From: an uncultured virus (IMG/VR IMGVR_UViG_3300009285_001861)
Lineage: Duplodnaviria > Heunggongvirae > Uroviricota > Caudoviricetes
Length of the DNA: 64,000 nt
Strand: one strand, 5' to 3'
Virus record (IMG/VR): IMGVR_UViG_3300009285_001861
The first letter of the stretch is position 1. Every line of letters begins with the position of its first letter. The notes under the pieces were generated by a model. It made no database searches. It worked only from the letters and a program-made list of their open reading frames with translations, and was not told the DNA's origin. This document shows positions 11,764 to 64,000 of the stretch, piece after piece. A program made the translations under genes and the position numbers.

Positions 11764-11796
11764 TCAATAACAGTGGTGATGCAGATGCTGGTTCAT
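11764..11796 (-). CDS. Putative His/Cys/Tyr-sensing leader peptide MNQHLHHHCY
   Basis: ATG AAC CAG CAT CTG CAT CAC CAC TGT TAT TGA upstream of Tyr-Cys-His tRNAs. Confidence 0.8.
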   Translation of the reverse strand: MNQHLHHHCY

Positions 11797-12103
11797 TTGA
11801 GGCTTGTACCTATACTACGCTTCTAGAGGACGATTAGCCAGGGAAATCGACAGGGGGCTAACGATTGGTCATGGGACCGCTGTAGGAGCACACTGCCCTA
11901 CCTGAGCCCCACCATGCTCTATGAGCTCACGTCGAGCCCAGCAACTTGTCTGGGTGGGCTCACATACCCGCACTTCGGCCCGTTGCAAGACTGTGACGAA
12001 ACACCATAAATGTCTGACCCTCGGTGGTGGCCTATGTGAGACATGATGGTTGTTGGGAAGAGAGGCAAGGAAGAGAAGGAAGCCTGTAAGGAACGTCATA
12101 CCA

Positions 12104-13905: not shown

Positions 13906-14001
13906 TTAGGCTGCGGGCGGGGCGGCTGGACCCACGCACGCCACCACGCAAGCGGCTGTCGCCGCTGGTGCTGTGTTGGTGCTGTGGGTCGAGAGGTTCA
14001 T
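13906..14001 (-). CDS. Putative Ala/Pro-sensing leader MNLSTHSTNTAPAATAACVVACVGPAAPPAA
   Basis: 10 Ala + 4 Pro in 31 codons, between promoter and Pro-Ala tRNAs. Confidence 0.78.
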   Translation of the reverse strand: MNLSTHSTNTAPAATAACVVACVGPAAPPAA

Positions 14002-23898: not shown

Positions 23899-25056
23899 TC
23901 AATGACCATCCTTGGCATCCTTGCGTTCAAGGTAGGCGTCCGAGATGTACTTGAGGATCTTGCGGCCCTGGAAGCCAGATGCCAGCTGCTGGCCCTGATA
24001 GAAGTCCACTCTGGTCTCCGGTTCAGAGGTCACAACCACACCTTCCCGGACATGCTTAGCCCCAGGAAGGGTAGAGGCGCCGTCCCGCAATGCCTGGACA
24101 GATTCCTTGTTGAAGGGACCCCGGTATAGGACCGGGACTGTCTGAAGACCCAGGACCTCGGCCACCTTCTCAATGACCTCCCGTCCCTGGTACCGCCCAT
24201 CAACTAGAACGTCGATGATCCGGACCTGCTGCACATTGGCTTCACAGCCATAGGTCAGATCCTGAATGCCACTTCCAAAAAGCTCGGCGAAGATGATGTA
24301 GTGCTCCGTCATCGGCCATGAGCCATTATCGTTCTGGACTAAAGCACGAACCTTGTCCTCAGGAAGGAACTTGGCAGCCGCCAATGAATAGGCATTGGTT
24401 CCCTTGGGGTCCCTGGCCGTGTTGTGGGTTCCCACCATGTAGGTTGGCGTAGCCACCCCATCGGTGACCATGCCATCAACTACCAGGGCCACCCTGAAGT
24501 TGGTTCCATGAATCTTCTCGGTCACACGCACCGGATCCCCTTCCGCAAACACGTCGGGGAAGTTCTTGGCATTCTCGATGTGGGTGTAGGACTGGAATGC
24601 CCCGGGACACCGGATCATGTCTCCAGACATGTTCGAGGGGATCGGTGGCTCATACCGCTCAATCCCAAGAGCCTCTGTCCAGGTCCCCCAATGTCCCCCA
24701 AGAGGGGCAATCTCCACCCCTGTTTCGCCTGGAAGCATACCGGGCAGGGACTCGGGAACCGGGATCAGAAGACCCTGGCTCAACGCACCCCGGAGGCGGA
24801 TTGTCTTGAGCTTGTGTGCAGGGCGACCATTAGAAAGCTTCTTGGTGGCTTTGTCCTTGAGGAAATCAAAGCTGGGAAGCGACACGTCAAGCAGCGCGTC
24901 AATGGCGATGTAGATGCCCTCTCGGACATCCCCCCACTGTTCCGTCTGGGTCACGCACTGCCAATCCATCCCATCAATTGTGGCGATGGACAGCTTGTCC
25001 GCGTTCGGGTGCTTATTGAGGGTGAATTTGACTTGTCGTGCTAGTTCTGTGGCCAT
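23899..25056 (-). CDS. RNA ligase, DRB0094/Rnl5-type
   Basis: HPNADKL, IRLRGALSQGL N-terminal domain; TEKIHGTN motif I; REGVVV motif IV. Confidence 0.9.
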   Translation of the reverse strand: MATELARQVKFTLNKHPNADKLSIATIDGMDWQCVTQTEQWGDVREGIYIAIDALLDVSLPSFDFLKDKATKKLSNGRPAHKLKTIRLRGALSQGLLIPVPESLPGMLPGETGVEIAPLGGHWGTWTEALGIERYEPPIPSNMSGDMIRCPGAFQSYTHIENAKNFPDVFAEGDPVRVTEKIHGTNFRVALVVDGMVTDGVATPTYMVGTHNTARDPKGTNAYSLAAAKFLPEDKVRALVQNDNGSWPMTEHYIIFAELFGSGIQDLTYGCEANVQQVRIIDVLVDGRYQGREVIEKVAEVLGLQTVPVLYRGPFNKESVQALRDGASTLPGAKHVREGVVVTSEPETRVDFYQGQQLASGFQGRKILKYISDAYLERKDAKDGH

Positions 25057-25929: not shown

Positions 25930-26349
25930 TCACTGCTGCTGTTGCTGGGGTTGCTGGCGGGGTTGTAGGGTGACGATCCCTAGCGTAGCGGATTTGGAGT
26001 TCGCACGGTGCCCTGCACCCAACCCCGTAAGGGAGGCATCGGTGCTGCACCAAAGTGGACCAAGGGAATTCATTGAGTGCGCCGGACCTGGATCGAACAG
26101 GTATGTCTCCCTCTTCAGGGGAGTGCATGGACCACCACTGCCACCGACGCGAACGCCAAGGCGCCGCCCGGTAAACTTGTCTGTGGATCCAGTGCTCATA
26201 GTGCGCGAGGCCGGGTACGATCCGGCGACTTCTCGATTATCGGTCGAGTATTCTTCCACTGAATTACCCGCGCATGCTGCGTCAGCTGCCATCGTCGAAG
26301 CGATGGCGCCGGTAATGCACGGGCTAGCAATGTGGAGGGAGGGGTTCAT
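25930..26349 (-). CDS. Leader/read-through ORF spanning tRNA-Ile and tRNA-Phe, ending QPRQQPQQQQQ before Gln tRNAs (internal ATGs at 26199, 26073)
   Basis: 139 open codons starting just after the promoter; Ile x3, Phe, Gln x8 each placed before the cognate tRNA. Confidence 0.7.
   Translation of the reverse strand: MNPSLHIASPCITGAIASTMAADAACAGNSVEEYSTDNREVAGSYPASRTMSTGSTDKFTGRRLGVRVGGSGGPCTPLKRETYLFDPGPAHSMNSLGPLWCSTDASLTGLGAGHRANSKSATLGIVTLQPRQQPQQQQQ
26078..26150 (-). tRNA. tRNA-Phe(GAA)
   Basis: CTCCC-CTGAAGA-GGGAG. Confidence 0.85.
26202..26273 (-). tRNA. tRNA-Ile(GAT)
   Basis: CTCGA-CCGATAA-TCGAG (C33). Confidence 0.85.
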
Positions 26350-27750: not shown

Positions 27751-27807
27751 TTAACCCTTTCGGGTCAATCCGGCGGTACGTGTTCGCGTCGTGGTGAAGA
27801 ATCTCAT
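27751..27807 (-). CDS. Putative Thr-sensing leader MRFFTTTRTRTAGLTRKG
   Basis: 6 Thr codons (ACC, ACG, ACG, ACA, ACC, ACC); stop in hairpin GATTGACCC-GAAA-GGGTTAATC. Confidence 0.8.
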   Translation of the reverse strand: MRFFTTTRTRTAGLTRKG

Positions 27808-32860: not shown

Positions 32861-33733
32861 CTACTTCCACCACGTGTCGGTTGGGGTCACGGGAGCCGCT
32901 CGCTTGTGGCGAGTTGCCAGGAACCGGGCCTCAATGATACGGGCTGCCTCCTCCCCTACGTGGGCACCGGGGCAACCATTGCTAATGGGATACCCCTCCA
33001 GGTAGTTGTCGATCTCATCGTAGGAGATGCCCAGCTCGGTCTCGTCAGCCTGTGCGGGGTTGCCGTCCAGGAGGTCCGCTGTGGGGACCTTCAGGTAGAT
33101 GGCCGGGTCTGCCCCAAGTTCCTTGAGGAGTCGGGCACCCTGCCTCTTGGTGAGGCCAGCAAGGGGAAGGATGTCTGCCCCACCGTCACCGAACTTAGTG
33201 AAGAACCCAGTTACGGACTCAGCCGCATGGTCCGTACCAATGACCAGCAGGTTCTTCTGCCCCCCAATAGCATATTGGGCCACCATTCGCATTCGGGCCT
33301 TGATGTTGCCCTTGTGATAGTCGGTCAGGTCTTCCCCCATGGACTTCTGGAAGGTTAGCGTGGCAGAATCCACTGCATCTTTGATGTTGTAGGTGACGGT
33401 CACATCGGGCCGGATGAACTGGAGTGCCCGCTGGGCATCTACTTCATCCTTCTGGGTCCCGTGGGGGAGCCGGACAGCGACGAAAAATGCCTCATAGTCT
33501 TTCGTGGGCCCCTGATAGGCTGGGTGGTCAATGAGGAGGTTGACCGCCATCTGGGCAAGCCTGCCAGCCAGGGACGAGTCCTGGCCTCCGCTGATACCGA
33601 GAACGTACCCCCTGGCCTTCGAGGCCACCAAGTAGTCCCTCAAGAACTGGACTCGCTCCTTGATTTCGGTTGCTGGGTCAATTGTGGGCTTGACCCCGAG
33701 TTCTTGGATGATCCGTGCTTGCATTGTTGTCAT
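32861..33733 (-). CDS. nadE: Ammonia-dependent NAD+ synthetase
   Basis: [44 protein letters not shown] motifs. Confidence 0.95.
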
Positions 33734-35103: not shown

Positions 35104-35517
35104 TCAGACAGATATTCGTCTGAGCCTAGTGCCGGTAGCGGTAACCGAAACCGCGGTGTGCTCCTTATGAGAGAGCAACCCGCCCTGTGTACCGGCATTC
35201 AGCAATGCATCGGTGCACATTCGATTTGAGGTACGAGTAGAGAGGTTCGAACTCCCGACGCGCGGGGCGTAGGCCCGCCGCTCTTCCGCTGAGCTATACT
35301 CGCGTACAAAACCTTGCTGCCCACCGCACGGGTGAGCGGGTCGCACGACGAGACCAGCAGTTGAGGTGTAGTGATTCATGGTGCATGCAGAGAGAATCGA
35401 ACTCTCATTTCGCAGATTAAGAGTCTGGCGACCTGCCGTTGGCCCATGCATGCGTGTTTGCTCCCGAGGTTTTCCCTCGGGGCAACGCTTGAGCATGGAT
35501 GTGGTCAGGTGGTTCAT
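35104..35517 (-). CDS. Leader/read-through ORF spanning tRNA-Lys, Val and CAT, ending AGG CTC AGA CGA ATA before Arg(TCT)/Ile(TAT)
   Basis: 137 open codons from the promoter-proximal ATG; cognate codons in each spacer; internal ATG at 35379. Confidence 0.72.
   Translation of the reverse strand: MNHLTTSMLKRCPEGKPREQTRMHGPTAGRQTLNLRNESSILSACTMNHYTSTAGLVVRPAHPCGGQQGFVREYSSAEERRAYAPRVGSSNLSTRTSNRMCTDALLNAGTQGGLLSHKEHTAVSVTATGTRLRRISV
35130..35196 (-). tRNA. Short tRNA with CAT anticodon (Met or Ile2), reduced D arm
   Basis: 7-bp acceptor, GCTCT-CTCATAA-GGAGC, T arm GCGGT/ACCGC; 67 nt. Confidence 0.65.
35232..35303 (-). tRNA. tRNA-Val(TAC)
   Basis: GCGGG-CCTACGC-CCCGC (C33); A73. Confidence 0.8.
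35379..35453 (-). tRNA. tRNA-Lys(CTT)
   Basis: CAGA-CTCTTAA-TCTG; CCA. Confidence 0.87.
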
Positions 35518-35560: not shown

Positions 35561-35630
35561 TTGCCTGCTTGGTTGTTGTCTCTATCTTACGCTCGTGGGG
35601 GCTGGGTTGGGGAGGAAATCGACCAGGGAC

Positions 35631-40523: not shown

Positions 40524-41243
40524 TTACTTTGATGTCACTTTCTCATACACTGACGTGAACTTCCTCCCGTGTTTTGAAATTGCGTAGTCCAGATACTCTT
40601 GGATGGATCCCTTGTCGATGACTTTTAGGGGTACGGGGCACTGATCGATCTTGGCTCTCTCCTTCTTGGTCCAAATACCTTTGATCTCAACTAGACTACC
40701 CCCCACAATGAAGTCCGGGTAGTACTTATGTGTCCTACCTTCGTACTCATACTCGTAGCTAACCCTATTCCGTTCGATTGGGACACCATGGTCAATACAG
40801 TGGATGACGAACGCCAGCTCCCAACTACTATCACACCAATATCCCTTATACCAGCCATTCAGACCATGCCCACTCCCCTGCTTGTACCCGGAAGTCCGTA
40901 TCTTATCGAACCTCTCCCGATATTCCTGCTTCGTCTCATCAGATTGGGAAGCCCACCACTTTTTATGGTCTTGTTGGGAGGCACGTTTGGCCAGTATTGC
41001 TTTCTTTTCCGCAGCTCCGACTGCCCCGTACATTTCCTCGTATGTTTTGCCGGTTTGCCAGGGGGTAAACCCTGGGTAGAACCCTCTTCTCCCCCCCTTG
41101 TGGGTTGGCTTACCTTTTTTCTTGGTCGAGTCCCTCTCTCGTTTCCCCGGACAACTGTTTGGGCTTGGGGAACAACACCACTTCCCAGAAGACTTGAATT
41201 GAATACTGGCCTCTTGATCACATCCGAATTCACACTTTGGCAT
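40524..41243 (-). CDS. Putative homing endonuclease (PD-(D/E)xK/TnsA-like domain) inserted in the Ser tRNA cluster
   Basis: DSSWEL...YYPDF...VEIKG motif; N-terminal Cys-rich and basic DNA-binding segment. Confidence 0.75.
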   Translation of the reverse strand: MPKCEFGCDQEASIQFKSSGKWCCSPSPNSCPGKRERDSTKKKGKPTHKGGRRGFYPGFTPWQTGKTYEEMYGAVGAAEKKAILAKRASQQDHKKWWASQSDETKQEYRERFDKIRTSGYKQGSGHGLNGWYKGYWCDSSWELAFVIHCIDHGVPIERNRVSYEYEYEGRTHKYYPDFIVGGSLVEIKGIWTKKERAKIDQCPVPLKVIDKGSIQEYLDYAISKHGRKFTSVYEKVTSK

Positions 41244-41406: not shown

Positions 41407-41574
41407 TTAGGATCGCGAGACTGAGAGACTACTACTCCACCACGTAGACGTGTGTCCTACGCAGCGGGTCGAGTGGGATTCAAACCCACGGACGCTTTTC
41501 AGCGCCTCCACGTTAGCAGTGTGGTGCCTTAGGTCTCTCGGCCACCGACCCAGAGTTGTTTCGAGAAGAGTCAC
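41407..41574 (-). CDS. Putative Ser-sensing leader ORF reading through tRNA-Ser(GCT), ending TSTWWSSSLSVSRS
   Basis: TCT, AGT x3, TCA, TCG, TCC in spacer; stop TAA in loop of GCGATCC/GGATCGC hairpin; GTG start uncertain. Confidence 0.55.
   Translation of the reverse strand: MTLLETTLGRWPRDLRHHTANVEALKSVRGFESHSTRCVGHTSTWWSSSLSVSRS
41465..41551 (-). tRNA. tRNA-Ser(GCT)
   Basis: CCACA-CTGCTAA-CGTGG (A31-C39); long variable arm. Confidence 0.87.
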
Positions 41575-44805: not shown

Positions 44806-45285
44806 CGTCTTCACACCCAGCAACCAGAGGTCCGCGGTCTCCTTGGTTCGGAACATAGCCCACACCCGGCCCGCGTCCACGCACCACCATCCGTCGAGAG
44901 CATGCCGACTGTCTCGTGGGTTAGGGATGTATGACCTACGAAGGGACGAACACTCCTGAAGCCGGTAGGGGGGAGTTAGGTCATCCCCCAGCTCATGGTT
45001 GAAGAACTTTTGGGCGACCGGCTGGAACTTGGGTTGCCCCACGTACCATGCCTCATAGTCCTGGCTGGTCAGCTTGACCGGGGCCGGGAGAGCAGGACCC
45101 GTCCGCATCTCCTTGAGGGCTGCGGGGAGGGCTCCGAACTCGAACTCCGCCGACCCCATGTAGTCGAACCGAAACACCCCATCAATGAGGCCCCGTGCGG
45201 GGGACCGTTCCCCCACAGGACGAAGCTCTACCCGCTGGACCAGATGCAATCGGCTGATGTCTTCCATGCTCATCGTCCTTTTCAA
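44803..45285 (-). CDS. Conserved phage hypothetical protein
   Basis: FDYMGSAEFEFGALP motif. Confidence 0.65.
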   Translation of the reverse strand: MKRTMSMEDISRLHLVQRVELRPVGERSPARGLIDGVFRFDYMGSAEFEFGALPAALKEMRTGPALPAPVKLTSQDYEAWYVGQPKFQPVAQKFFNHELGDDLTPPYRLQECSSLRRSYIPNPRDSRHALDGWWCVDAGRVWAMFRTKETADLWLLGVKT

Positions 45286-45917
45286 GAAATCGTCAATAAA
45301 TCGGTAACGTCTACCACACCACTGGCCGGGTGGGAACCGACAAACACCACAGGCTCGATGGGTTTTCCACCGAGCAGGAACCCCGAAATGTTGAGTGGCT
45401 GCACCACATTGGGGATCCCACTGGACCGAACGCGATCCCTCAGCTGCATGAGAAGCTGTCCCAAGATGTTGACCCCGTTGAGGGCTTCCATTCCGCTGAC
45501 AGGTTTTGCTCCCCAGAAGGCATCCTTCAATGAAAACTCCACGATGTCCATGTTACCTGTGGACTCCAGCAAACCCACGAAAGTGCTGGGGTTCTGCACA
45601 AGCTTCACACACAAACACCACATCATGAAAGGCACCCGTACATCATCCCAATCCGACCGGGACTGGCCCTCGTTGATGTGAGCCTTGGCACACCACTTGG
45701 CAGACATGGGGCTCTTGTGGTCGATGATTTCCTGTTGGACTTCGGGCAGATGGGGGAACCGCAGGGCCTGATAGAGAGCCTCTGTGGTCCGAATGCTGAT
45801 CCCATTCACGACCAAGGGATACCCGCCCGCCATGTTGGACAGACCCCCGAAGGCCTCTTTGGTCTTACGGAAGACAGCACACTGGGAGGGGATGTAGGTG
45901 GTGGGTTCCAGGTTCAT
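45282..45917 (-). CDS. NADAR-family protein
   Basis: FGGLSNM, TTEALYQA, SPMSAK, DWDDVR, IVEFS..DAFWG, GVNILGQLLMQLR. Confidence 0.9.
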   Translation of the reverse strand: MNLEPTTYIPSQCAVFRKTKEAFGGLSNMAGGYPLVVNGISIRTTEALYQALRFPHLPEVQQEIIDHKSPMSAKWCAKAHINEGQSRSDWDDVRVPFMMWCLCVKLVQNPSTFVGLLESTGNMDIVEFSLKDAFWGAKPVSGMEALNGVNILGQLLMQLRDRVRSSGIPNVVQPLNISGFLLGGKPIEPVVFVGSHPASGVVDVTDLLTIS

Positions 45918-46629: not shown

Positions 46630-47043
46630 ATGAAGATCACCGTTGTGGCCCCCAATGAGCCCGACAGACTTGGACCCTCGGTCCCACCTTTTCGATACCA
46701 TCTGGACGCTGTTGTGGCCTACATGTTGGCACATGGGCGCCCAAGAATCCGTCTGGTCCAATTCTCTGAGACGGTGTATTGGGCTGTTGAGGGCAGCCAT
46801 CGGCTTGCCGCTGCCCAGGAACTTGGGCTAATCCCCGAGTTTGTGGTGATGACCGGAAAATTCCTTACTTCTCAAGAATACGGGAATGACTATAACGCTT
46901 GGGGGGAAGACCACTTAGTGACCCCCAAGGAGTTTATCTTCAATGTAGGCCGTCCCAGTGGCAGGTCCTACGAATTCGATGCCTCTGTTCTTGTTGCCAG
47001 ATCCCCAAAGACCTGTAGTGGAGCCGAAGCCCCATGCCAGTGA
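46630..47043 (+). CDS. ParB/sulfiredoxin-like domain protein
   Basis: AVEGSHRLAAAQELG. Confidence 0.55.
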   Translation: MKITVVAPNEPDRLGPSVPPFRYHLDAVVAYMLAHGRPRIRLVQFSETVYWAVEGSHRLAAAQELGLIPEFVVMTGKFLTSQEYGNDYNAWGEDHLVTPKEFIFNVGRPSGRSYEFDASVLVARSPKTCSGAEAPCQ

Positions 47044-47750
47044 AGTGCTACGTCCCTAGCTGTTCCTCACCGGCAGGCCCCGGGATGGGCCCTTGGGTGC
47101 CCTTCTGTGCCAAGCACTGGTTCGCCTGCCCCTGGGAAGTCCGGGAGCCCCTGTTCCGCTTCTACCGGGCACCACCTGCCAGCAAAGAGGATGATTGGGA
47201 GAACCCCTTGCAGGATTCTTGGGTGGGTGCAGTAATGACTGCCCTTGTTGAGCTTGGCGTCAAGATACGGATCCTTCTATTGGACATCGATGGGGTCCTA
47301 AATTCCCACGGACATTGGGCCCGCCGTAGCCCAGAGCTACGGGCCATTGAAGAAGCCAGCGTGATCCGGGGCGGTACCGACCCAGCCTGTATGGCGCATC
47401 TCAATGAGATCGTGTCCAGGACCAGTTGCTTGGTTGTTCTCAGCAGCACAATCCGAAGGTTCGAGACCTTGGAAGACCTCCAGAGTCACTTCAACCAATA
47501 TGGGTTCGTGGGGACGTTATTGGACCGCACCCCCTACATCAACGAGAGCCGGTGTAGGGGGCGGGAAATTGACATGTGGTTGAAGGCCCATCCCGAGGTG
47601 GCATCTTTTGCCATCTTGGACGATGAGGGGGACATGGATCCCCACCTGGACAAGTGGGTCAAGACCAGCATGCACAAGGAGGGACTGGAACGGGGGCATA
47701 TCGAGAGGGTATGTACCCTACTTGGAGTTCCCGCCGTTCCCGTCAAGTAG
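47034..47750 (+). CDS. HAD-domain protein (Swiss Army Knife RNA-repair type)
   Basis: LDIDGVLN, VLSST, RGREI..WL, FAILDD. Confidence 0.85.
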   Translation: MPVKCYVPSCSSPAGPGMGPWVPFCAKHWFACPWEVREPLFRFYRAPPASKEDDWENPLQDSWVGAVMTALVELGVKIRILLLDIDGVLNSHGHWARRSPELRAIEEASVIRGGTDPACMAHLNEIVSRTSCLVVLSSTIRRFETLEDLQSHFNQYGFVGTLLDRTPYINESRCRGREIDMWLKAHPEVASFAILDDEGDMDPHLDKWVKTSMHKEGLERGHIERVCTLLGVPAVPVK

Positions 47751-48108
47751 GCCTTAACGCAGGTGGGCGTGGGATGGGATATGAGGGGCGTTCAATAACC
47801 CGACAAGGAGCCACGGTCCTTATGGGGGGACCATTCTCATGTCGCTCAATCTGCTGGCGACCACACCGCAAGCAATAGCTCACGGCCAGGGACTTGATTG
47901 GGATGAGCATGACAGTAACTGTGTCCTCGATGCCAGGGCTATCTTCATTCAGGTGTATCTGAGGCTCGCGCTGTTCCCTCTCCACCGGAGCCACCGTACA
48001 CAACTGACCTGATTCAACCTTAGGACGCATTGAGTTCCCGTGTGGCCGGAACTTAACCGTCAGCCCAGCCTTGAGGTCCGCAATGTATAGCGTTGCCCAT
48101 CCCATGGC

Positions 48109-48918
48109 CTATACCCGTACATGGCGATCATTTCGCCTCCCCACACGTCTAGATTTGATTCCCGGTCTTACCTGGGAGGAGGGGGCCAGTCGCGTCACAT
48201 ATCGAAGCTGATTCTTGTTCTCGGAGACAAACTGAAACGCATCTGCATAGTGCTCCATTTCCTCGTCTTGTCGGAGTTCCTCGATGGCCCGACGAATCCT
48301 GTGTCTAACGAAACCCTGGGAGACGTTCAGCCCATGGATGGCATTCAACTGCCGGGCTACCTCTGTCTGGCAGGTTGTCTCATACAATAGAGCCAGAATC
48401 CACCCGTCTATTGGGTCCTTGAAAAATCCCCCGAGCTTTTCCTTGTCCTTCAGAGAAAGTTTGGGGACCTGTATGGCGTACTCAAGTCGTTCAAGTGCCC
48501 TAAAGAGTCGGTAATGGATTGAGGGTTGGGAGATGCCGAAGTATTCGGCCATGGCCGCTTGCTTGACCGGCTGGAAGAAGTACATGTCAATCATCTCCGC
48601 CTCATCCTGAGGAATGAGCTTCAGAGCTTTCTTGACCTTCTGCCACAGTTCCCGGTCCCCCGTATTGGCCGGTAGGTAACCGGCTTGGGACATGAGGGCT
48701 CGAATGATGGGGTTTCCAGGGATCCCGAGGAACTCCCCCCAATCCTCCCATTGTCCCTTGTATGCCTCCTCTGGTTTGATTGGCATATCCTTTAGGGCAC
48801 CGGAACGGACAAGACCCTGATAGGTGTTTCGATGGGATAGCTTGACGGATAGGACAATCCGTTTGGCCTTAGAGTAAGAGATGAACTTCTTTTTTGGCAC
48901 AGGGGATGTTACCCTCAT
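48109..48918 (-). CDS. DNA-binding regulator with two sigma70 region-4-like HTHs and an N-terminal integrase-repeat-like unit
   Basis: QAAMAEYFGISQPSIHYRLFRALERL; second VSQGFVRHR; PIKPEEAYKGQWEDWGEFLG. Confidence 0.65.
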   Translation of the reverse strand: MRVTSPVPKKKFISYSKAKRIVLSVKLSHRNTYQGLVRSGALKDMPIKPEEAYKGQWEDWGEFLGIPGNPIIRALMSQAGYLPANTGDRELWQKVKKALKLIPQDEAEMIDMYFFQPVKQAAMAEYFGISQPSIHYRLFRALERLEYAIQVPKLSLKDKEKLGGFFKDPIDGWILALLYETTCQTEVARQLNAIHGLNVSQGFVRHRIRRAIEELRQDEEMEHYADAFQFVSENKNQLRYVTRLAPSSQVRPGIKSRRVGRRNDRHVRV

Positions 48919-48921
48919 TTG

Positions 48922-48992
48922 AGCGGCGTGCGAAACTCGAATTCGCTTCTCCGGGTTGGAAGCCCGGGGCCCAGCCTATAGACCAACGCCGC
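48922..48992 (-). tRNA. tRNA-Gly(TCC)
   Basis: CCGGG-CTTCCAA-CCCGG; U73. Confidence 0.88.
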
Positions 48993-49004
48993 AAGAAAAC
49001 AGAG

Positions 49005-49076
49005 AGCGGGAGAGGGAGCTCGAATCCCCGACCTGTGCGATGGCGACGCACCGCTCTACCACTGAGCTACTCCCGC
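49005..49076 (-). tRNA. tRNA-Gly(GCC)
   Basis: GTGCG-TCGCCAT-CGCAC (C33); U73. Confidence 0.88.
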
Positions 49077-49138
49077 ATATTGGTACGCGCGCTCCGCGCT
49101 GCGGTACCTTCGGGATGTTGTCGTTCTGTGGTTTTCAT
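49067..49138 (-). CDS. Putative internal leader MKTTERQHPEGTAARSARTNMRE before Gly tRNAs
   Basis: Single GGT codon in a hairpin arm pairing with the tRNA 5' end; stop inside the tRNA. Confidence 0.45.
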   Translation of the reverse strand: MKTTERQHPEGTAARSARTNMRE

Positions 49139-49156
49139 CGTTTCGTCTTTCGTTTG

Positions 49157-49231
49157 CGTGTACGACAGGGATCGAACCTGTGACCTTGGGCTTCGGAGGC
49201 CCCTGCTCTAATCCAACTGAGCTACGCACAC
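49157..49231 (-). tRNA. tRNA-Arg(CCG)
   Basis: GGGC-CTCCGAA-GCCC. Confidence 0.9.
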
Positions 49232-49233
49232 AT

Positions 49234-49309
49234 TGGCGCGTCTGAGAGGACTTGAACCTCTAACACCTGCATTCGTAGTGCAGTGCTCTATCCATTGAGC
49301 TACAGACGC
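49234..49309 (-). tRNA. tRNA-Arg(ACG)
   Basis: CTGCA-CTACGAA-TGCAG; CCA. Confidence 0.93.
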
Positions 49310-49341
49310 ATGTACAGCTGCGTTTGGGCCAACTACCTGTC

Positions 49342-49417
49342 TGGCATCCCTGGCTAGACTCGAACTAGCGTCCTGTCCTTAGGAGGAACCCGCTCTGTCC
49401 AGTTGAGCTACAGGGAC
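49342..49417 (-). tRNA. tRNA-Arg(CCT)
   Basis: Loop CTCCTAA; CCA. Confidence 0.88.
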
Positions 49418-49423
49418 GGACAA

Positions 49424-49534
49424 TCAGGTGGTTGGCCTAATACGCCGTCGTCGCTGCACACGCCCGCAACCTCGCGCCAGCGTTCCGCCGTCACGTCCGT
49501 GGGTTGTCGTCTTGGTGTACATCGAGAAGCTCAT
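49424..49534 (-). CDS. Putative Arg/Gly-sensing leader MSFSMYTKTTTHGRDGGTLARGCGRVQRRRRIRPTT
   Basis: 8 Arg (CGT, CGA, CGG, AGG) + 5 Gly codons in 36. Confidence 0.78.
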   Translation of the reverse strand: MSFSMYTKTTTHGRDGGTLARGCGRVQRRRRIRPTT

Positions 49535-49553
49535 GGTGAGTAGTTGAGAGTAT

Positions 49554-49582
49554 AGCTTAGCTATTGCGTTCAGTGGTGTCAA
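49554..49582 (-). promoter_or_regulatory. sigma70-type promoter of Arg-Gly operon
   Basis: TTGACA-N17-TAAGCT. Confidence 0.72.
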
Positions 49583-50795
49583 GGGTCGGTAGGTTGATTT
49601 GTCTTCCGAGACCGATACTTCTCTCGGAGCATAACGAGGCGAACGGCCCCCTCTGCGGTATCCGCACAGTCCTCTACACCGGTCTGGATGTGACGGGCCC
49701 AGAAATCATTGCAGCACCCGGGGTCACACTTCGATACCTCGAATCCTGGGTGGTCATCCATGACCCGCTGCATCTCAATCTCTTCCAAAGTGGCTTGGTC
49801 TTGAGCGGCTGCGGCGTCGGCAATCACCTTCTCTAGCCGCTGGACTTCCAGGGTTAGGCGGGTGATCTCAGCACGAGCATCCTGAAGTCGTTGTGCGGAA
49901 CTACTCACATCGTATTGCACTCGTTCTGCGGCCAGCTCATTCCCAAGTACTGCACGTTGTCGAGCCTCTGCATCTCGTTCCGACGTGCGGGTTTGGACCT
50001 CTTCGGTCAGACGAGCAACTTCAGCCTCAGCTTTCTTGGCACGGGCCACCATCCGTTCAAGCTGACAATGCTCGCACATGATTCGAGCCCCACATTGATC
50101 ACAGGGGCTACAACAGGCGTGGTCATGCATGATGATGCCACCGCTGGGACCACCATGGCAAATACAATGACAGATGGTTGCTTCGGGGTGGCTACATTTG
50201 GGCAGGATAAGGTCCATTGCCACAACCCCCTATACGAACATCGCTAGTGAGTCGTTCCCACTATCGAACCTCACCCCACAGCGAACCAGCGTCAGCACGT
50301 CGGCCTCGGTGGCCACTGCCCCCAGGGCATCAATGTCCACCGCGAGCCAGATTTCGTCATGCTCCGCACAAGGAATCATGTCTTTTGTTCCTGGCACGAG
50401 CTGGTCGAGCAATAGGAACGCACACAGGTCTGGGCGAGTGCTGAGCTTGTTTTCAACATGCTCGAACTTGAACAACTCGTAGTTGTAGTCCTCGTCGCTC
50501 AGACGCCGGAACTCGTTTCGGATGTCCACTACGCACTTACCTGGGCCTGAACTGCCACTCGACGATACACGGGGGTGTTGGCGAGAATGTCATCCTTGCA
50601 GACAACATAGATACGGTCTGGCGGGTTGCCCACAATCTCTGAGGGGATCTCCTCAGTGCGGATCGCCTTGAAGCGGACGATCCCCTCCGAAGTGATCTGA
50701 TAGCCCTGTCCGTTGTGGTCGGACACTTCCCAGATGGTCTGCTGGGTGTCCTGGTCAAAAGAAGCGCGGAGGAGCTGAAGGTCGTTCTGGTTCAT
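49579..50795 (-). other. Three hypothetical genes (49579-50223 coiled coil, 50230-50529, 50529-50795)
   Basis: Tiled ORFs. Confidence 0.6.
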
Positions 50796-58514: not shown

Positions 58515-58571
58515 TTATGTGCGTTCGGAATCCGATTCGCGCTCTCGCTCTGATGTCGTGTAGGAGTTCAT
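58515..58571 (-). CDS. Putative Glu/Asp-sensing leader MNSYTTSERERESDSERT
   Basis: GAG, GAG, GAA, GAT, GAA; stop at apex of ACGCAC/GTGCGT hairpin. Confidence 0.78.
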   Translation of the reverse strand: MNSYTTSERERESDSERT

Positions 58572-59352: not shown

Positions 59353-60438
59353 ATGTTCCCACTATACACCCCTGAAGCGTTCCAGGCAGCAAAATCTTTC
59401 ACCTTACTACCCCTGAAGTGTCAACAGTGCCCCACCACCATCTATCGGACCAAGAAGGCTCTTAAGTACGCAATCCTGAAAGGCAAGGAGAAATTCTTTT
59501 GCCCCAAGTGCCTTCCCCAATCCCAGGTGTCATCCATCGAGGTAGCCTGCCTGACTTGCGGGGTCAAGTTCTTGAAGCGGGCATCCCAATGTAAGAAAAC
59601 CCCCAATCACTTTTGTAGTCGGTCCTGTGCAGTGAAGACCAACAATGTCAAGACCCCCAAGAGGAAGGTTGAGGGCTCCTGTCGAACCTGTCAGAAGCCT
59701 ACACATACCAAAGACCGGTATTGCTCGGATTCCTGTAAGGAGGTGGCCCGTCAAATCTGGGAGGCGGAACGGGAGCTAGAGTGGCAGAAGCCCCCCGTCA
59801 AGGTCAAGGGACCCCGTAAGCCTAGGGCGAGTAGTGGATACAAGAAGATTGGAAGGTCCCCAGCACAAAAGCGGGAGGACGGGAAGGCAGGGGTTGTGGC
59901 CTGGAGGCAACGCACCAAGCTCAAAGCCATTGAGTACAAGGGAGGATGCTGCCAAACATGCGGGTACCGGAAATGTGTATGGGCTCTCTCTTTCCACCAT
60001 GTGGACCCCTCACAGAAGGACTTTGGCATTGGTGGTCGGAATCTTAAGTCCTGGGCCCGTATTCAGGTGGAGTTGGACAAGTGTGTCCTAATTTGTAGTA
60101 ACTGTCATGCAGAAGTCCATGATGCCCTGGACAGCACCCCTGATGCTAAGGCCCATTGGAGGAAACGCCTCAAGATTAAGGCCATTGAGTACAAAGGAGG
60201 TCATTGTTGCCTTTGCGGGTACCACAACTGCAACAGGGCATTGAGTTTTCACCATTTGGACCCGTCCCAAAAGGACTTCAACATCTCCAGGGTTAGTAGA
60301 ACCTGGGAAAGCATACAACCGGAGTTGGATAAGTGTGTCCTACTCTGCATGAACTGCCATGGGGAAGTTCATGCTGGCACTGCTATTTTAGACTCGATGG
60401 TAGACCGTACTGGAATCGAACCAGTTTCTACGGGTTAA
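59353..60438 (+). CDS. Free-standing homing endonuclease with two tandem HNH domains
   Basis: Two copies of KAIEYKGG.C..CGY...LSFHH.DPSQKDF...ELDKCVL.C.NCH.EVH; N-terminal FCSRSC/YCSDSC zinc fingers. Confidence 0.9.
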   Translation: MFPLYTPEAFQAAKSFTLLPLKCQQCPTTIYRTKKALKYAILKGKEKFFCPKCLPQSQVSSIEVACLTCGVKFLKRASQCKKTPNHFCSRSCAVKTNNVKTPKRKVEGSCRTCQKPTHTKDRYCSDSCKEVARQIWEAERELEWQKPPVKVKGPRKPRASSGYKKIGRSPAQKREDGKAGVVAWRQRTKLKAIEYKGGCCQTCGYRKCVWALSFHHVDPSQKDFGIGGRNLKSWARIQVELDKCVLICSNCHAEVHDALDSTPDAKAHWRKRLKIKAIEYKGGHCCLCGYHNCNRALSFHHLDPSQKDFNISRVSRTWESIQPELDKCVLLCMNCHGEVHAGTAILDSMVDRTGIEPVSTG

Positions 60439-60472
60439 AAGCCACGCTGCCCAACCAATAGGCCAACGGTCC
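60398..60472 (-). tRNA. tRNA-Lys(TTT)
   Basis: Loop CTTTTAA; bulged anticodon stem; CCA. Confidence 0.82.
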
Positions 60473-60523
60473 TCAATTGGAGGCGTCGGCGGGTTTGAGT
60501 CGAAGTGAGAAGGAAAACGTCAT
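60473..60523 (-). CDS. Putative internal leader MTFSFSLRLKPADASN before tRNA-Lys(TTT)
   Basis: GAGGT RBS; AAA codon within CTCAA/TTGAG stem; stop abuts tRNA +1. Confidence 0.5.
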   Translation of the reverse strand: MTFSFSLRLKPADASN

Positions 60524-60534
60524 TTGGACCTCAG

Positions 60535-60608
60535 CTCCGTGGGCAGGGATCGCACCTGCTCAATAGGCAGTTTAACAAACTGCTGCCGTCCTATTTGGCT
60601 ACCACGGA
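60535..60608 (-). tRNA. tRNA-Asn(GTT)
   Basis: GCAGT-TTGTTAA-ACTGC; G73; atypical T loop TGCGATC. Confidence 0.85.
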
Positions 60609-60633
60609 AAACACGAATGCACGGCTGCCAACG

Positions 60634-60684
60634 CTAGGCGTTGGCGTTCCGATTCAGTGTTCCAGGTTTCAAGAGGGCGTACAT
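60634..60684 (-). CDS. Putative Asn/Lys-sensing leader MYALLKPGTLNRNANA
   Basis: AAA, AAT, AAC, AAC; stop at apex of GCCAACGC/GCGTTGGC hairpin. Confidence 0.72.
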   Translation of the reverse strand: MYALLKPGTLNRNANA

Positions 60685-61137: not shown

Positions 61138-61165
61138 ATCTTACGCACCAGGAGAGACTTGTCGA
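61138..61165 (-). promoter_or_regulatory. Possible sigma70-type promoter of fMet-Asn-Lys operon
   Basis: TCGACA-N16-TAAGAT. Confidence 0.5.
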
Positions 61166-61421
61166 GAAGAAATCTACTGGGGGTGCGATTTGCCCTACTT
61201 GCCCTACTTCTTGTACCAAGCGAAGAACCCTGCCCCTACCCCGAAGAACAGAATGAGAGTCAGGAAGGCGTAAAGGCCATGGTAGTCACAGTCTGTGACC
61301 CCGCTTCCGTTGCCCACGGGGTGGCACACCATGGGCATGTATGCCGCACCACAGAGCCCTGCCACGCAGACCAGCAGGCACAGGCAGAAGATGGCAAACA
61401 AAAACTTCAGCATGGTTGTTC

Positions 61422-61940: not shown

Positions 61941-62757
61941 CGGGCCTTCTTCAGCCGCTCAATCAGGGCATCAGCCCGAAGTCGCAGTGTCACAGGCAGC
62001 CACTTCACGTGTTCCCACTTCATCCAACTGGAAGAGGTGTTAATGTCCTCCTGAAGCATTTTGGCAGCGGAAGCATATCCTGTCCCATGCTTATCGATTT
62101 CCGTCCCAAGGGACTCTACGGTGTCAGTTTCCCAGGAAGCCCGCGTTTCCGCTGTGACTTCCGTTGTAACTTCCAGGGTGCCCTCGACTGGGACGCACTC
62201 CTCATCGAAGCCGTCGAAGCTGAAGTCTTCGTGGTACAGGATGGCCTCCGCCGCACCACAGATACTCCCCTCGAAGCCCCCGGTCTCCTTGATGACAACG
62301 GAGTTCGGATGCTCCGTCGTGTCAAAGTGGACCTCAAACGCCCCATCTGATTCGTCAAACTGGACCTTGAGGACATCACCTGGACTGAGCACAATTGTTG
62401 GCATGTTCAATATTCTCCTGTGTACCTTGGTTACGCTTACTTGACCCTCATTGCCTTCTCGATCAACACGTCACCGTAGCCTGCTACGGCCAGGGCATCC
62501 GACTCATCCCAGGGCAGCTCATAGTACACGGCTTTGCACTGTTTGCAACCGCGACGCATCCTAGCCCGGTGTGGTACAATGCCCCACAAGCGTTTCCACC
62601 AAGACGGTTCGTAAGCCGGTTCATAGGTATCAGACGGCCCCTGTGGAACCATCTTCCCCATGCTCAACATCATCGTCGGATCAGCGGTGTAGGTGCCACA
62701 CTTCCGGCACGGCATCGAGGGTGACCTGTACGGGGGCAGTGGCTCTTTTGTGTTCAT
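61937..62757 (-). other. Two hypothetical genes (61937-62410, 62437-62757)
   Basis: Tiled ORFs. Confidence 0.55.
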
Positions 62758-63746
62758 CGAGTTGGACCTTTCATAAGTAACTCGTCCATCTGGATCAAGA
62801 CCTGCCCATCCTTGAGCCCTTCCACCCAGCCAGTAGGGATAGCCTCCAGGCCCAGATAGGTGCCCAACAGGGCGCCTGTGATGGCTGCCCGGGTGTCCGT
62901 GTCCCCCCCACCCCTCACGGCCATCCTAACCCCCTCAGCGAAGTCATCTTCGTGGGCCATGGCGCAGTAGACCGCTGAAACCACTGTCTGGGCAGCGTTA
63001 CCCCGTCGACCCAGAAGGCCGATGGCTTCTGGGGTGGGGGTGTTGAGGTCGAAGAGATCAAAAGCCATTCGGAGTAGCTTGGTGACATTGGTTGAATCGG
63101 GGCCCCCGAAACTCCGGCTATCTAGGATGGCCAGTACCTCTTGAAGTGTTCCCGCCACAGTCCACCTGTGGGATGAAAGCCCAGCTACCAGCATGGCGAT
63201 CACCGAACTTGCTGTGATTGCTTCGATGTGGTCATGGGTGATCGTGGCGTCCAATCGGGCCACATGGTGCATCACCAGCGGGTTTTCGTTACGGTAGAAG
63301 AGCCCAAGGGGGGCTACCCGCATGGCAGTGCCATTGCCCACAGCGTTGGGGTTGTCGAAGGTCTTGCCTGACCGGTCCCAAGGGACACCATCCCGCACTG
63401 CCCGGAGGGCATCGCGTGTGGATCCTCCCATCCCACATGGTTCCCCTTGGGCCCATATGAGGTAGCCATTTGCGGCATCCACTGGGTCATACTTGCCACA
63501 AGCCATGAGGGATTTGGCCAGTGCCATGGCCATCCCGGTGTCATCTGTCCAGCACCCTGCTGGGAGACTGGGCATGGGGACCTTACCATCGAGGGTGTGT
63601 GTTAGCCGGTCCGGCCAGGACCCAGCCACATAGTTGCCGTCCCAGGTGGCGAGACGGGGGTCCACTCTGTCGCTGAAGTGCTCGAAGGGCATCCCCAAAG
63701 CATCCCCTACCGCGAGTCCGACCATTGTTGCTGGTGCTGATTTCAT
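62754..63746 (-). CDS. ADP-ribosylglycohydrolase (DraG/ARH family)
   Basis: GLAVGDALG, WTDDT, GNGTAMR, ITH, GGDTDT. Confidence 0.93.
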   Translation of the reverse strand: MKSAPATMVGLAVGDALGMPFEHFSDRVDPRLATWDGNYVAGSWPDRLTHTLDGKVPMPSLPAGCWTDDTGMAMALAKSLMACGKYDPVDAANGYLIWAQGEPCGMGGSTRDALRAVRDGVPWDRSGKTFDNPNAVGNGTAMRVAPLGLFYRNENPLVMHHVARLDATITHDHIEAITASSVIAMLVAGLSSHRWTVAGTLQEVLAILDSRSFGGPDSTNVTKLLRMAFDLFDLNTPTPEAIGLLGRRGNAAQTVVSAVYCAMAHEDDFAEGVRMAVRGGGDTDTRAAITGALLGTYLGLEAIPTGWVEGLKDGQVLIQMDELLMKGPTR

Positions 63747-64000
63747 GTTGCCAAGTCCCTCCCCATTCCCCAGAAAATACCAGCGTCCACTGGGAGTCTT
63801 CCGCTGGCACTCAATCGTTCCCACATCCTGGCAACCATTGCCCGTCCTCGCGTCTTCCCTACCCCACGTCCCCGTTCCAGCACAACCCACCATTGGGCAA
63901 GTGGCATGGCGCCCTTCTTCTTGTTGCAGGAGTGGCACAGGACCATGAAATTCGAGGGGTCATTAGGCCCGCTTTGGCAGCTGGGCACAATGTGGTCAAT
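63743..64000 (-). CDS. HNH endonuclease, partial (runs off window)
   Basis: IDHIVP...NFMVLCHSCNKKKG. Confidence 0.8.
   Translation of the reverse strand: MDHIVPSCQSGPNDPSNFMVLCHSCNKKKGAMPLAQWWVVLERGRGVGKTRGRAMVARMWERLSASGRLPVDAGIFWGMGRDLAT

Follow-up and report, generated by a model that had tools for sequence, protein, structure and literature searches.

It has long been asked why phages carry tRNA genes, and the current answer, in the part of a report available to us, is that these genes counter tRNA-cutting defences such as PARIS (PMC12409363). At the locus studied here, a small operon of arginine and glycine tRNA genes is preceded by a short reading frame rich in arginine codons, parts of which are complementary to the flanks of the tRNAs that follow. 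Does this frame sense a shortage of arginyl-tRNA, and, if so, at which step does it act on the tRNAs? A codon-by-codon sensor of this kind would make the counter-defence idea testable, as each leader would name the shortage that its tRNA answers. A matching mini-gene accompanies most other tRNA genes of this phage. When one tRNA runs short, the ribosome is probably slowed on such a mini-gene and more of that tRNA is released, perhaps because it is unmasked for processing and not through a textbook stop of transcription.

The whole stretch of DNA that was analysed, 64,000 nucleotides long and called the window below, is C1:27366-91365 of a virus record of 485,040 bases (G000) from an uncultured jumbo phage, a 92%-complete genome in which the major capsid, portal and terminase genes were found. 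Its capsid protein shares 89-94% identity with many uncultured phages, 48% with that of the Tunturiibacter phage Tunturi_5 and 37% with that of Bacillus phage G. The public holders of the sequence are DNA runs, mostly from groundwater. The NAD synthase proved unusable as a guide to the host, its best hits (about 60%) being split over Bacillota and Actinomycetota. ARAGORN detects 34 tRNA genes in the window and relaxed scoring adds Trp and Asn genes; with a tRNA-like gene of anticodon CAT near 35196-35124, the total comes to 37, all of them on the minus strand and arranged by amino acid in small groups. The CAT gene (35124-35196, minus), which was missed by both ARAGORN and Rfam, has an odd T arm and would specify Met or Ile2; TilS was not found in the 92%-complete genome. 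Neither a CCA-adding enzyme nor RNase III nor an RNase P RNA was found in it, and these absences imply that tRNA processing is left to the host.

The Arg/Gly operon and its leader

A sequence-only reading of the locus had proposed an Arg/Gly leader followed by five tRNAs, and these are present where it placed them, all on the minus strand: tRNA-Arg(CCT) at 49342-49417 and tRNA-Arg(ACG) at 49234-49309, both with an encoded CCA, tRNA-Arg(CCG) at 49156-49231 and tRNA-Gly(GCC) at 49004-49076, both without one, the latter having a C at position 33, and tRNA-Gly(TCC) at 48921-48992. Upstream lies a sigma70-type promoter-like site, TTGACA-17-TAAGCT (49554-49582, minus), followed by a TATACT hexamer (49554-49549). 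The TTG at 49582, given as the start in the program's list of open reading frames, is in fact within the -35 box. The presumably translated leader frame runs from an ATG at 49534, with a second in-frame ATG at 49522, to a TGA at 49424 (49424-49534, minus) and encodes 36 amino acids, MSFSMYTKTTTHGRDGGTLARGCGRVQRRRRIRPTT. The 5' UTR would be about 8-13 nt long, and no Shine-Dalgarno-like site precedes the leader.

All the codons claimed for the leader (CGT/CGA, CGG, AGG and GGA/GGC/GGT/GGG) occur in it. The Arg codons, in the order CGT CGA CGT CGA CGA CGG CGT AGG, make up 8 of 35 codons against 1.9 expected (P = 5e-4). Seven of these 35 codons specify Thr (P = 0.017). The stretch CGT GTG CAG CGA CGA CGG CGT ATT AGG (49436-49462, minus) contains codons for all three Arg tRNAs of the operon. 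The proposal that the leader senses both amino acids thus holds for Arg; the Gly codons (GGA GGC GGA GGT GGG, in that order) are not enriched, with 5 of 35 against 3.0 expected (P = 0.18). tRNA-Gly(GCC) has its own internal mini-frame, MKTTERQHPEGTAARSARTNMRE (49067-49138, minus), which runs into the tRNA and stops at its positions +8..+10, and whose sole Gly codon, a GGT at 49108, opens a hairpin (49108-49082). AGA, whose tRNA is encoded elsewhere, is indeed absent from the Arg leader, which is uninformative, as eight Arg codons would lack AGA with a probability of 0.42; a better support for the same point is the AGA present in the leader of tRNA-Arg(TCT), 25 nt ahead of that tRNA.

A contig from run X9 (49068-50400) and contigs from run X7 (48000-49352 and 49484-50177) do not differ from the window by a single letter, and the feature is therefore not an assembly artefact; X9 shares its study with a possible source run. 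The operon is followed, 3 nt past tRNA-Gly(TCC), by a gene for a 269-aa protein with a sigma70 region 4 domain (48109-48918, minus), for which no relatives were recovered from viral contigs. There is no terminator between tRNA-Gly(TCC) and this gene, which may lie on the same transcript as the tRNAs.

Cognate leaders across the tRNA region

The Arg leader has counterparts throughout the window, although it should be borne in mind that these sister units were picked by eye before most tests. A promoter pattern, TTGACA/TANRCT, has 5 matches in the 64 kb, the site of the Arg leader among them, all 5 ahead of tRNA leaders, where 0.14 would be expected. A looser version has 10 matches in the genome, of which 7 precede tRNA leaders; in these the first ATG lies 9-21 nt past the -10 box. 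Since both patterns were drawn from these same leaders, the evidence lies in the placement of the matches and not in their count. When the seven promoter-led leaders were defined by rule as the first ATG after the -10 box, and only the first tRNA of the Ile and Lys operons was scored, the true assignment of leaders to tRNAs was the best of 5040. A second promoter-like motif, GTMGATT-N-GCGTARKAT, has three matches in the genome, each before a tRNA operon (Tyr/Cys/His, Lys/Val and Met; window positions 11812-11851, 35584-35623 and 61138-61177, minus), from which three sites the pattern was itself drawn.

The leaders, all on the minus strand, include a Leu leader (2319-2408), whose six Leu codons span all five anticodon classes of the Leu operon (P = 0.02); coverage of anticodon classes is unremarkable for the Arg, Gly, Thr and Ser leaders (0.76, 0.92, 0.52 and 0.22). 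A leader encoding MNQHLHHHCY (11764-11796) precedes the Tyr, Cys and His tRNAs and is followed by an internal His leader (11548-11501), an Ala/Pro-rich leader (13906-14001) has 14 such codons among 30 (P = 3e-5), and a Thr leader, MRFFTTTRTRTAGLTRKG (27751-27807), has P = 1e-3. In the Glu/Asp leader, MNSYTTSERERESDSERT (58515-58571), the stop codon falls in the apical loop of a rod that reaches position +7 of the tRNA. An Asn leader (60684-60634) and a Lys(TTT) leader (60523-60473) lie together in 60473-60684; the tRNA-Lys(TTT) at 60398-60472 has an anticodon loop of 8 bases.

Several frames are read through tRNA genes. One of 139 codons (25930-26349, minus) traverses tRNAs Ile, Phe and Trp, has in-frame ATGs right after tRNA-Ile and tRNA-Phe, and ends in QPRQQPQQQQQ before tRNA-Gln; the tRNA-Trp(CCA) that it crosses (25955-26026, minus) is weak, and its 3' part doubles as coding sequence for the start of the Gln run. 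Another of 137 codons (35104-35517, minus) traverses tRNAs Lys, Val and the CAT tRNA and ends with AGG CTC AGA CGA in a hairpin before tRNA-Arg(TCT). These two stop-free frames, each crossing three tRNA genes and ending in codons of the next tRNA, would be open by chance with probabilities of 0.02 and 0.014, and a third, GTG-led frame through tRNA-Ser(GCT) (41407-41574, minus), which ends in SSSLSVSRS, with a probability of 0.18. The Ser operon is also split, between Ser(CGA) and Ser(GGA), by an endonuclease-like gene (40524-41243, minus) with a weak match to Phage_endo_I.

Of the nine internal spacers of at least 30 nt at which the amino acid changes, seven were examined for cognate codons in the frame of the first ATG; these are 50-103 nt long, with the ATG 0-21 nt past the previous tRNA and no promoter match. 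Six of them contain such a codon (null probabilities 0.29, 0.07, 0.02, 0.26, 0.09 and 0.06), and the seventh, before the CAT tRNA, has only its ATG. The two left out of this count are the Trp-Gln spacer, which has no ATG, its Gln run lying in the read-through frame, and the 309-nt Met-Asn spacer, in which the Asn leader is not at the first ATG.

Most units fold into a rod that has the cognate codons in its 5' arm and extends with its 3' arm to position +1 of the tRNA or beyond, often with the stop codon near the apex. Across 19 units (one more was dropped as too short), leaders prefer the window from -22 to +10 of their own tRNA over those of others in a manner equalled by 0 of 100,000 permutations, with 10 of the 19 ranking first or second. 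Long-range pairs on positions -10..+7 average 10.2 in 15 units (6 of 21, with less than 60 nt upstream, being excluded) against 5.8 in 70 tRNAs of three related phages judged by eye to be leaderless (p = 2e-4), and the shuffled controls give 6.5 and 6.2, respectively. The view that a cognate-codon leader is translated and pairs with the flanks of tRNAs is supported much more strongly by the rest of the genome than by the Arg locus alone, and, on these sequence comparisons, the Arg frame is very probably the sensor of a genome-wide feedback system on tRNAs, whatever its output.

Leaders in related phages

Two relatives, G006 and G007, with capsid proteins 91% and 92% identical, have cognate leaders before their Glu/Asn, Trp/Cys, Gln, Lys, Tyr, His, Thr/Val and Pro/Arg/Leu tRNAs, and a Glu leader occurs in G016, which was found by pattern and not placed by its capsid. 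The Glu helices of G006 and G007 retain 19 of 19 pairs while the loop diverges; there is a single one-sided change, and none of the 19 pairs has a compensatory change between these two sequences, which show conservation and not covariation. The G016 record also has two tandem tRNAs with the amber anticodon CTA (L208, G016:C1:5497-5647). Three further relatives, G001, G003 and G005 (L160, L161 and L162; capsid 93%), have compact mixed tRNA arrays with no evident leaders, and, judged from sequence, leader control is patchy within the capsid clade.

Terminators with a U-tract occur in the leaders of 3 of 16 folded relatives' units: G006 Trp/Cys, G007 Gln and G015 Arg/Leu. In the folding model of the G006 Trp/Cys unit, a stall yields an alternative helix that breaks the terminator, which makes it likely that a stall switches the response on. 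The Trp leader of G007 and the Glu leaders of G006 and G007 form rods shaped like those of the window and without a U-tract, which favours the processing gate proposed below; the Trp rod pairs up to position -1 and opens on a stall. The tRNA-operon leader of the large phage G015 (L012) is Arg/Leu-rich, its terminator being of the classical U-tract type, and that of another large phage, G018 (L011), is Arg-rich and has a U-less rod.

No homolog of the Arg/Gly operon was recovered by tRNA-order patterns from viral contigs (5 loci; 30 loci, of which 16 were scanned and one had tRNAs; 1 locus) or from metagenome contigs (3 loci, one identical to the window). The stem pair used as a search pattern and the neighbouring protein used as a query each gave 0 matches, and a promoter-plus-start pattern gave 65 loci, 3 with downstream tRNAs and 1 of these with a matching leader. 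This lack of a homolog, like the missing Shine-Dalgarno-like site, would accord with an untranslated spacer with accidental codons and stems. Such an accident is nevertheless very improbable in view of the single best assignment among 5040, the matching leaders of G006, G007 and G016, and the promoters 9-21 nt before the ATGs.

Pairing between the leader and the tRNA flanks

Both long-range stems claimed for the locus are present where they were said to be. Stem 1, the best inverted repeat of 48800-49650, joins 49437-49425 to 49339-49327 in 12 of 13 pairs, with one C.A mismatch; its 5' arm (49418-49445, minus) holds the AGG and the stop codon, and its 3' arm (49320-49345, minus) comprises the 3' end and trailer of tRNA-Arg(CCT). 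The 5' arm also lengthens the acceptor stem of this tRNA through a C-1.G73 pair and pairs with part of its CCA. Stem 2 joins 49463-49453 to 49318-49308, which is positions -9..+2 of tRNA-Arg(ACG), in 11 of 11 pairs, two of them G.U; its 5' arm (49453-49471, minus) includes a G.U-rich extension to 49471, and its 3' arm (49298-49318, minus) an extension to +12. The pairing of -9..+2 has a probability of 0.72-0.98 in free RNA; invasion of the tRNA up to +12 is model-dependent (0.04 to 0.75).

The stems had been described as clamps on individual tRNAs. Pairing with the tRNA flanks is borne out, but the two are stacked parts of one structure rather than independent clamps: folding of 49480-49298 gives a single zipper (z = -3.5, 0 of 200 shuffles), in which the leader segment 49445-49418 lies on the 3' end and trailer of tRNA-Arg(CCT), stacked on its acceptor stem, and the segment 49471-49453 on -9..+12 of tRNA-Arg(ACG). 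We read this zipper as the same kind of rod as in the other units, aimed at tRNA-Arg(ACG) and carrying tRNA-Arg(CCT) in its apex. Three further candidates were discarded as chance, namely a third clamp on tRNA-Arg(CCG) (1703 of 2000 synonymous recodings as strong), a pairing of the leader with the 3' end of tRNA-Arg(ACG) (292 of 2000) and a clamp round tRNA-Gly(GCC) (1245 of 2000); neither tRNA-Arg(CCG) nor the Gly tRNAs have a significant clamp.

The duplex between the leader and the 32-nt spacer of the CCT and ACG tRNAs has an energy of -36.8 kcal/mol. Synonymous recodings are as strong in 20 of 2000 cases, shuffled spacers in 3 of 2000, shuffled leaders in 2 of 2000 and background windows in 50 of 7996. 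Stem 1 alone is equalled by 177 of 2000 recodings and 17 of 2000 shuffles, and stem 2 alone by 30 of 2000 and 13 of 2000, making stem 2 the stronger evidence. Extended to +12, stem 2 reaches -28.5, a value attained by 0 of 2000 leader shuffles and the top one among the 37 tRNA 5' ends of the window. These figures bear on the notion that the leader is a true sensor with merely incidental or structural stems, control being exerted by ribosome traffic, through RNA stability or unfolding, or with the sign reversed. The ease with which recodings reach stem 1, the uneven switching in the model described below and the three frames through tRNA genes would accord with it; the combined zipper (2-20 of 2000), the extended stem 2 with its own tRNA the best of 37, and the genome-wide excess of pairing run against it, and we regard it as improbable.

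A helix of this size could also be the substrate of a double-strand RNase of the RNase III type, the cut either destroying the masked tRNA ends, and thus switching them off, or starting their processing. The roughly 26 pairs of the zipper, stacked on the 7-pair acceptor stem, and the significance of the whole fold are compatible with such a cut. The helix is, however, interrupted by small internal loops every 3-7 pairs and has many G.U pairs, and, as no RNase III domain was found in the 92%-complete phage genome, the enzyme would have to be the host's; a cut of this type is unlikely, if marginally less so than incidental stems.

A proposed processing gate operated by ribosomes

The reading that we rank first, tentatively and at somewhat less than even confidence, is that stalling of the ribosome exposes the pre-tRNA to RNase P, so that the output lies at the level of processing. 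According to this proposal, the host RNA polymerase would produce one precursor comprising the leader, Arg(CCT), Arg(ACG), Arg(CCG), the internal leader, Gly(GCC) and Gly(TCC). With charged tRNA-Arg plentiful, ribosomes would translate and clear the leader, and its Arg-codon half would zip onto the trailer of Arg(CCT) and -9..+2 of Arg(ACG), thereby masking the single-stranded 5' leader needed by RNase P, and the precursor would be held or degraded. Were Arg codons read slowly because host tRNA is cut, depleted or uncharged, ribosomes would stall and queue on CGA CGA CGG CGT..AGG and cover the 5' arms, leaving the spacer free and allowing the tRNAs to mature; the new tRNA would then relieve the stall, closing a negative feedback loop. 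The same logic could apply to each tRNA genome-wide, with internal leaders and frames through tRNA genes gating every tRNA of a polycistronic precursor separately. Translation, stalling, the sign of the response and the identity of the gated enzyme are all things that we infer as parts of this proposal.

In our model, where each ribosome covers -16..+12, stem 2 alone is opened by a stall anywhere between TGC 49468 and CGA 49450 (half of it at GGT 49471), both stem cores by one between CGT 49444 and AGG 49438, and stem 1 alone once the ribosome is between ACC 49432 and the stop codon. The cost of presenting a tRNA, that is, with the acceptor formed and both -1..-7 and the 3' end free, is 4.6 kcal for tRNA-Arg(ACG) in free RNA and falls to 1.5-1.7 kcal with a queue of ribosomes up to the Arg run, whereas a queue that ends upstream gives 6.4-9.1 kcal. 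If only one ribosome is present and the 5' end is free, the cost is 5.6-6.2 kcal on the Arg run and 2.1 at the AGG; elsewhere than at the AGG the gain is lost because the start of the leader re-pairs with -7..-1 of Arg(ACG), an alternative pairing that frees nothing. The cost for tRNA-Arg(CCT) does not fall at any Arg codon (4.4-5.1 against 4.4 kcal free).

For 16 other units, treated at equilibrium with the whole tRNA, the average effect is small: the cost has a mean of 4.5 kcal in free RNA, 3.2 on stalling and 4.0 with shuffled leaders. Stalling lowers it in 12 of the 16, by 1.3 kcal on average, and the cost is higher than with shuffled leaders in just 10 of the 16. At the best codon, the choice of which flatters the result, about 7 of 17 units show a clear switch, and none is seen in the model for Leu, Pro/Ala, Phe, His, Trp, Gly(GCC) or Arg(CCT). 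Equilibrium folding thus backs the gate in part, that is, partly for Arg(ACG) and not for Arg(CCT). An effect of the leader on tRNA maturation would be plausible.

The main competitor would act on transcription. The rod might shut behind RNA polymerase when it is near +1..+12 of the tRNA, causing it to pause and be released, with the aid of a factor or of Rho, without any U-tract; Arg(CCT) would then be made constantly and everything downstream only on stalling. In keeping with such an arrangement, the rods are clearest in RNA that ends at +12..+14, the co-transcriptional state, and weaker once the 3' strand of the acceptor exists, and terminator units with an alternative fold on stalling occur in G006 Trp/Cys, of the same clade, and in G015. 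No intrinsic terminator, defined as a G+C hairpin with a U-tract, is present on the minus strand in 48000-50500, and none at either Arg unit. Across 21 units there are three weak terminator-like sites, with weak U-tracts, at His, Gln and Asn, and strong U-tract terminators number 12 in the genome against 12, 13 and 8 in shuffles; in a genome that seems not to rely on U-tracts, the missing one says little.

Termination is harder to reconcile with the structure of the Arg unit, since stem 1 cannot terminate ahead of Arg(CCT), both of its paired flanks belonging to a tRNA already transcribed; the loop would be a 76-nt tRNA, and no T-rich 8-mer with 5 T follows the zipper. Serial promoter-less internal units and frames through tRNA genes would fit termination badly as well: with serial terminators a downstream tRNA would depend on every upstream shortage, and with processing gates it would not. 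Termination without a U-tract is less probable than the processing gate and still a serious rival. It is the position of stem 1 on a finished tRNA, the mask formed by stem 2, the lack of a U-tract and the serial promoter-less units that place the processing gate first. In its most general form, this gate would be a natural ribosome-operated switch of tRNA maturation working tRNA by tRNA, in which each mini-message has cognate codons that can pair with the 5' end of its own pre-tRNA, and some messages are read through tRNA genes with a fresh start codon at each processed end; we advance this broader statement with still more reserve. If it is true, the phage would gauge which of the host's tRNAs is lacking, say after cutting by an anti-phage nuclease, and free only that one from a ready-made precursor, and control would be independent of transcription-translation coupling.

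Comparison with known systems

Leader-peptide attenuators such as trpL, hisL, thrL, ilvL and pheL, and pheM of pheST, have a short frame with many codons for the controlled amino acid. In the part of the source available to us, pheL is treated as a case of this kind (PMC3082878). The phage units resemble the trpL type in having a cognate-codon leader behind a promoter, codons that overlap a helix arm, multivalent leaders and the ribosome as putative sensor of charged tRNA. They differ in that the Arg unit controls tRNA genes instead of enzymes and has no U-tract terminator and no antiterminator that we could find, in that the leader pairs with the flank and 5' strand of the pre-tRNA itself, and in their internal leaders and frames through tRNA genes. 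As no terminator was found at it, the Arg unit is not classed as a leader-peptide attenuator.

Synthetic hairpins of 11-15 pairs that mask the 5' leader of a tRNA switch RNase P processing in E. coli, and their opening permits maturation, as described in the accessible portions of the reports (Ender et al.; PMC7897497, PMC8925977). The phage zipper is alike in laying a helix over the tRNA 5' leader in the off state; the synthetic constructs are designed and switched by theophylline, while the phage case is natural and its proposed switch is a stalled ribosome. That stem 2 masks the very stretch whose masking switches RNase P in the designed constructs favours the processing gate. If the output is indeed processing, the phage units would be nature's version of a switch that until now has existed only by design, and a compact part for demand-driven tRNA supply.

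A study of TrcR is reportedly tied to the trn operon of Anabaena PCC 7120. In this inducible operon, extra tRNA genes are turned on when translation is impaired, as far as the available text of the source goes (PMC8421152). It is one long array with a protein repressor and a global signal, whereas the phage has small operons sorted by amino acid with codon-specific RNA sensors. The counter-defence tRNAs described for PARIS suggest the likely purpose of the phage system, namely replacement of tRNAs destroyed in the host; demand-driven control by leader peptides is not described in the part of that report available to us. Theta ribozymes at the 3' ends of phage tRNAs (PMC10879173) provide a precedent for phage RNA elements acting in tRNA maturation, the accessible portion of that work describing them without leader-peptide control. 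The phage leaders may finally be set beside a system with a comparable readout. T-box riboswitches bind tRNA directly; they share with the phage leaders a codon-specific readout of tRNA charging and differ in binding the tRNA itself. No T-box match was obtained with Rfam, tRNA being the only Rfam family matched in the window.

A literature search, mostly of abstracts and with subscription literature largely not covered, returned no paper that describes tRNA genes controlled by leader peptides or a natural switch that governs access of RNase P. What the present analysis adds is the pairing onto the pre-tRNA itself, the internal leaders for single tRNAs and the frames read through tRNA genes; short frames that overlap tRNA genes, which are discarded in annotation, could thus be functional. 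Outside the window, the genome has a tRNA-like gene with anticodon TTA and a second tRNA-Arg(CCT) (G000:C1:222464-222540 and 224217-224291; L005), with no evident cognate leader. Among the tRNA operons of the window lie genes for an RNA ligase, an NAD synthase, a NADAR protein, a HAD RNA-repair protein and an ADP-ribosylglycohydrolase (23899-25056, 32861-33733, 45282-45917, 47034-47750 and 62754-63938, respectively), and the region is likely to be one of counter-defence.
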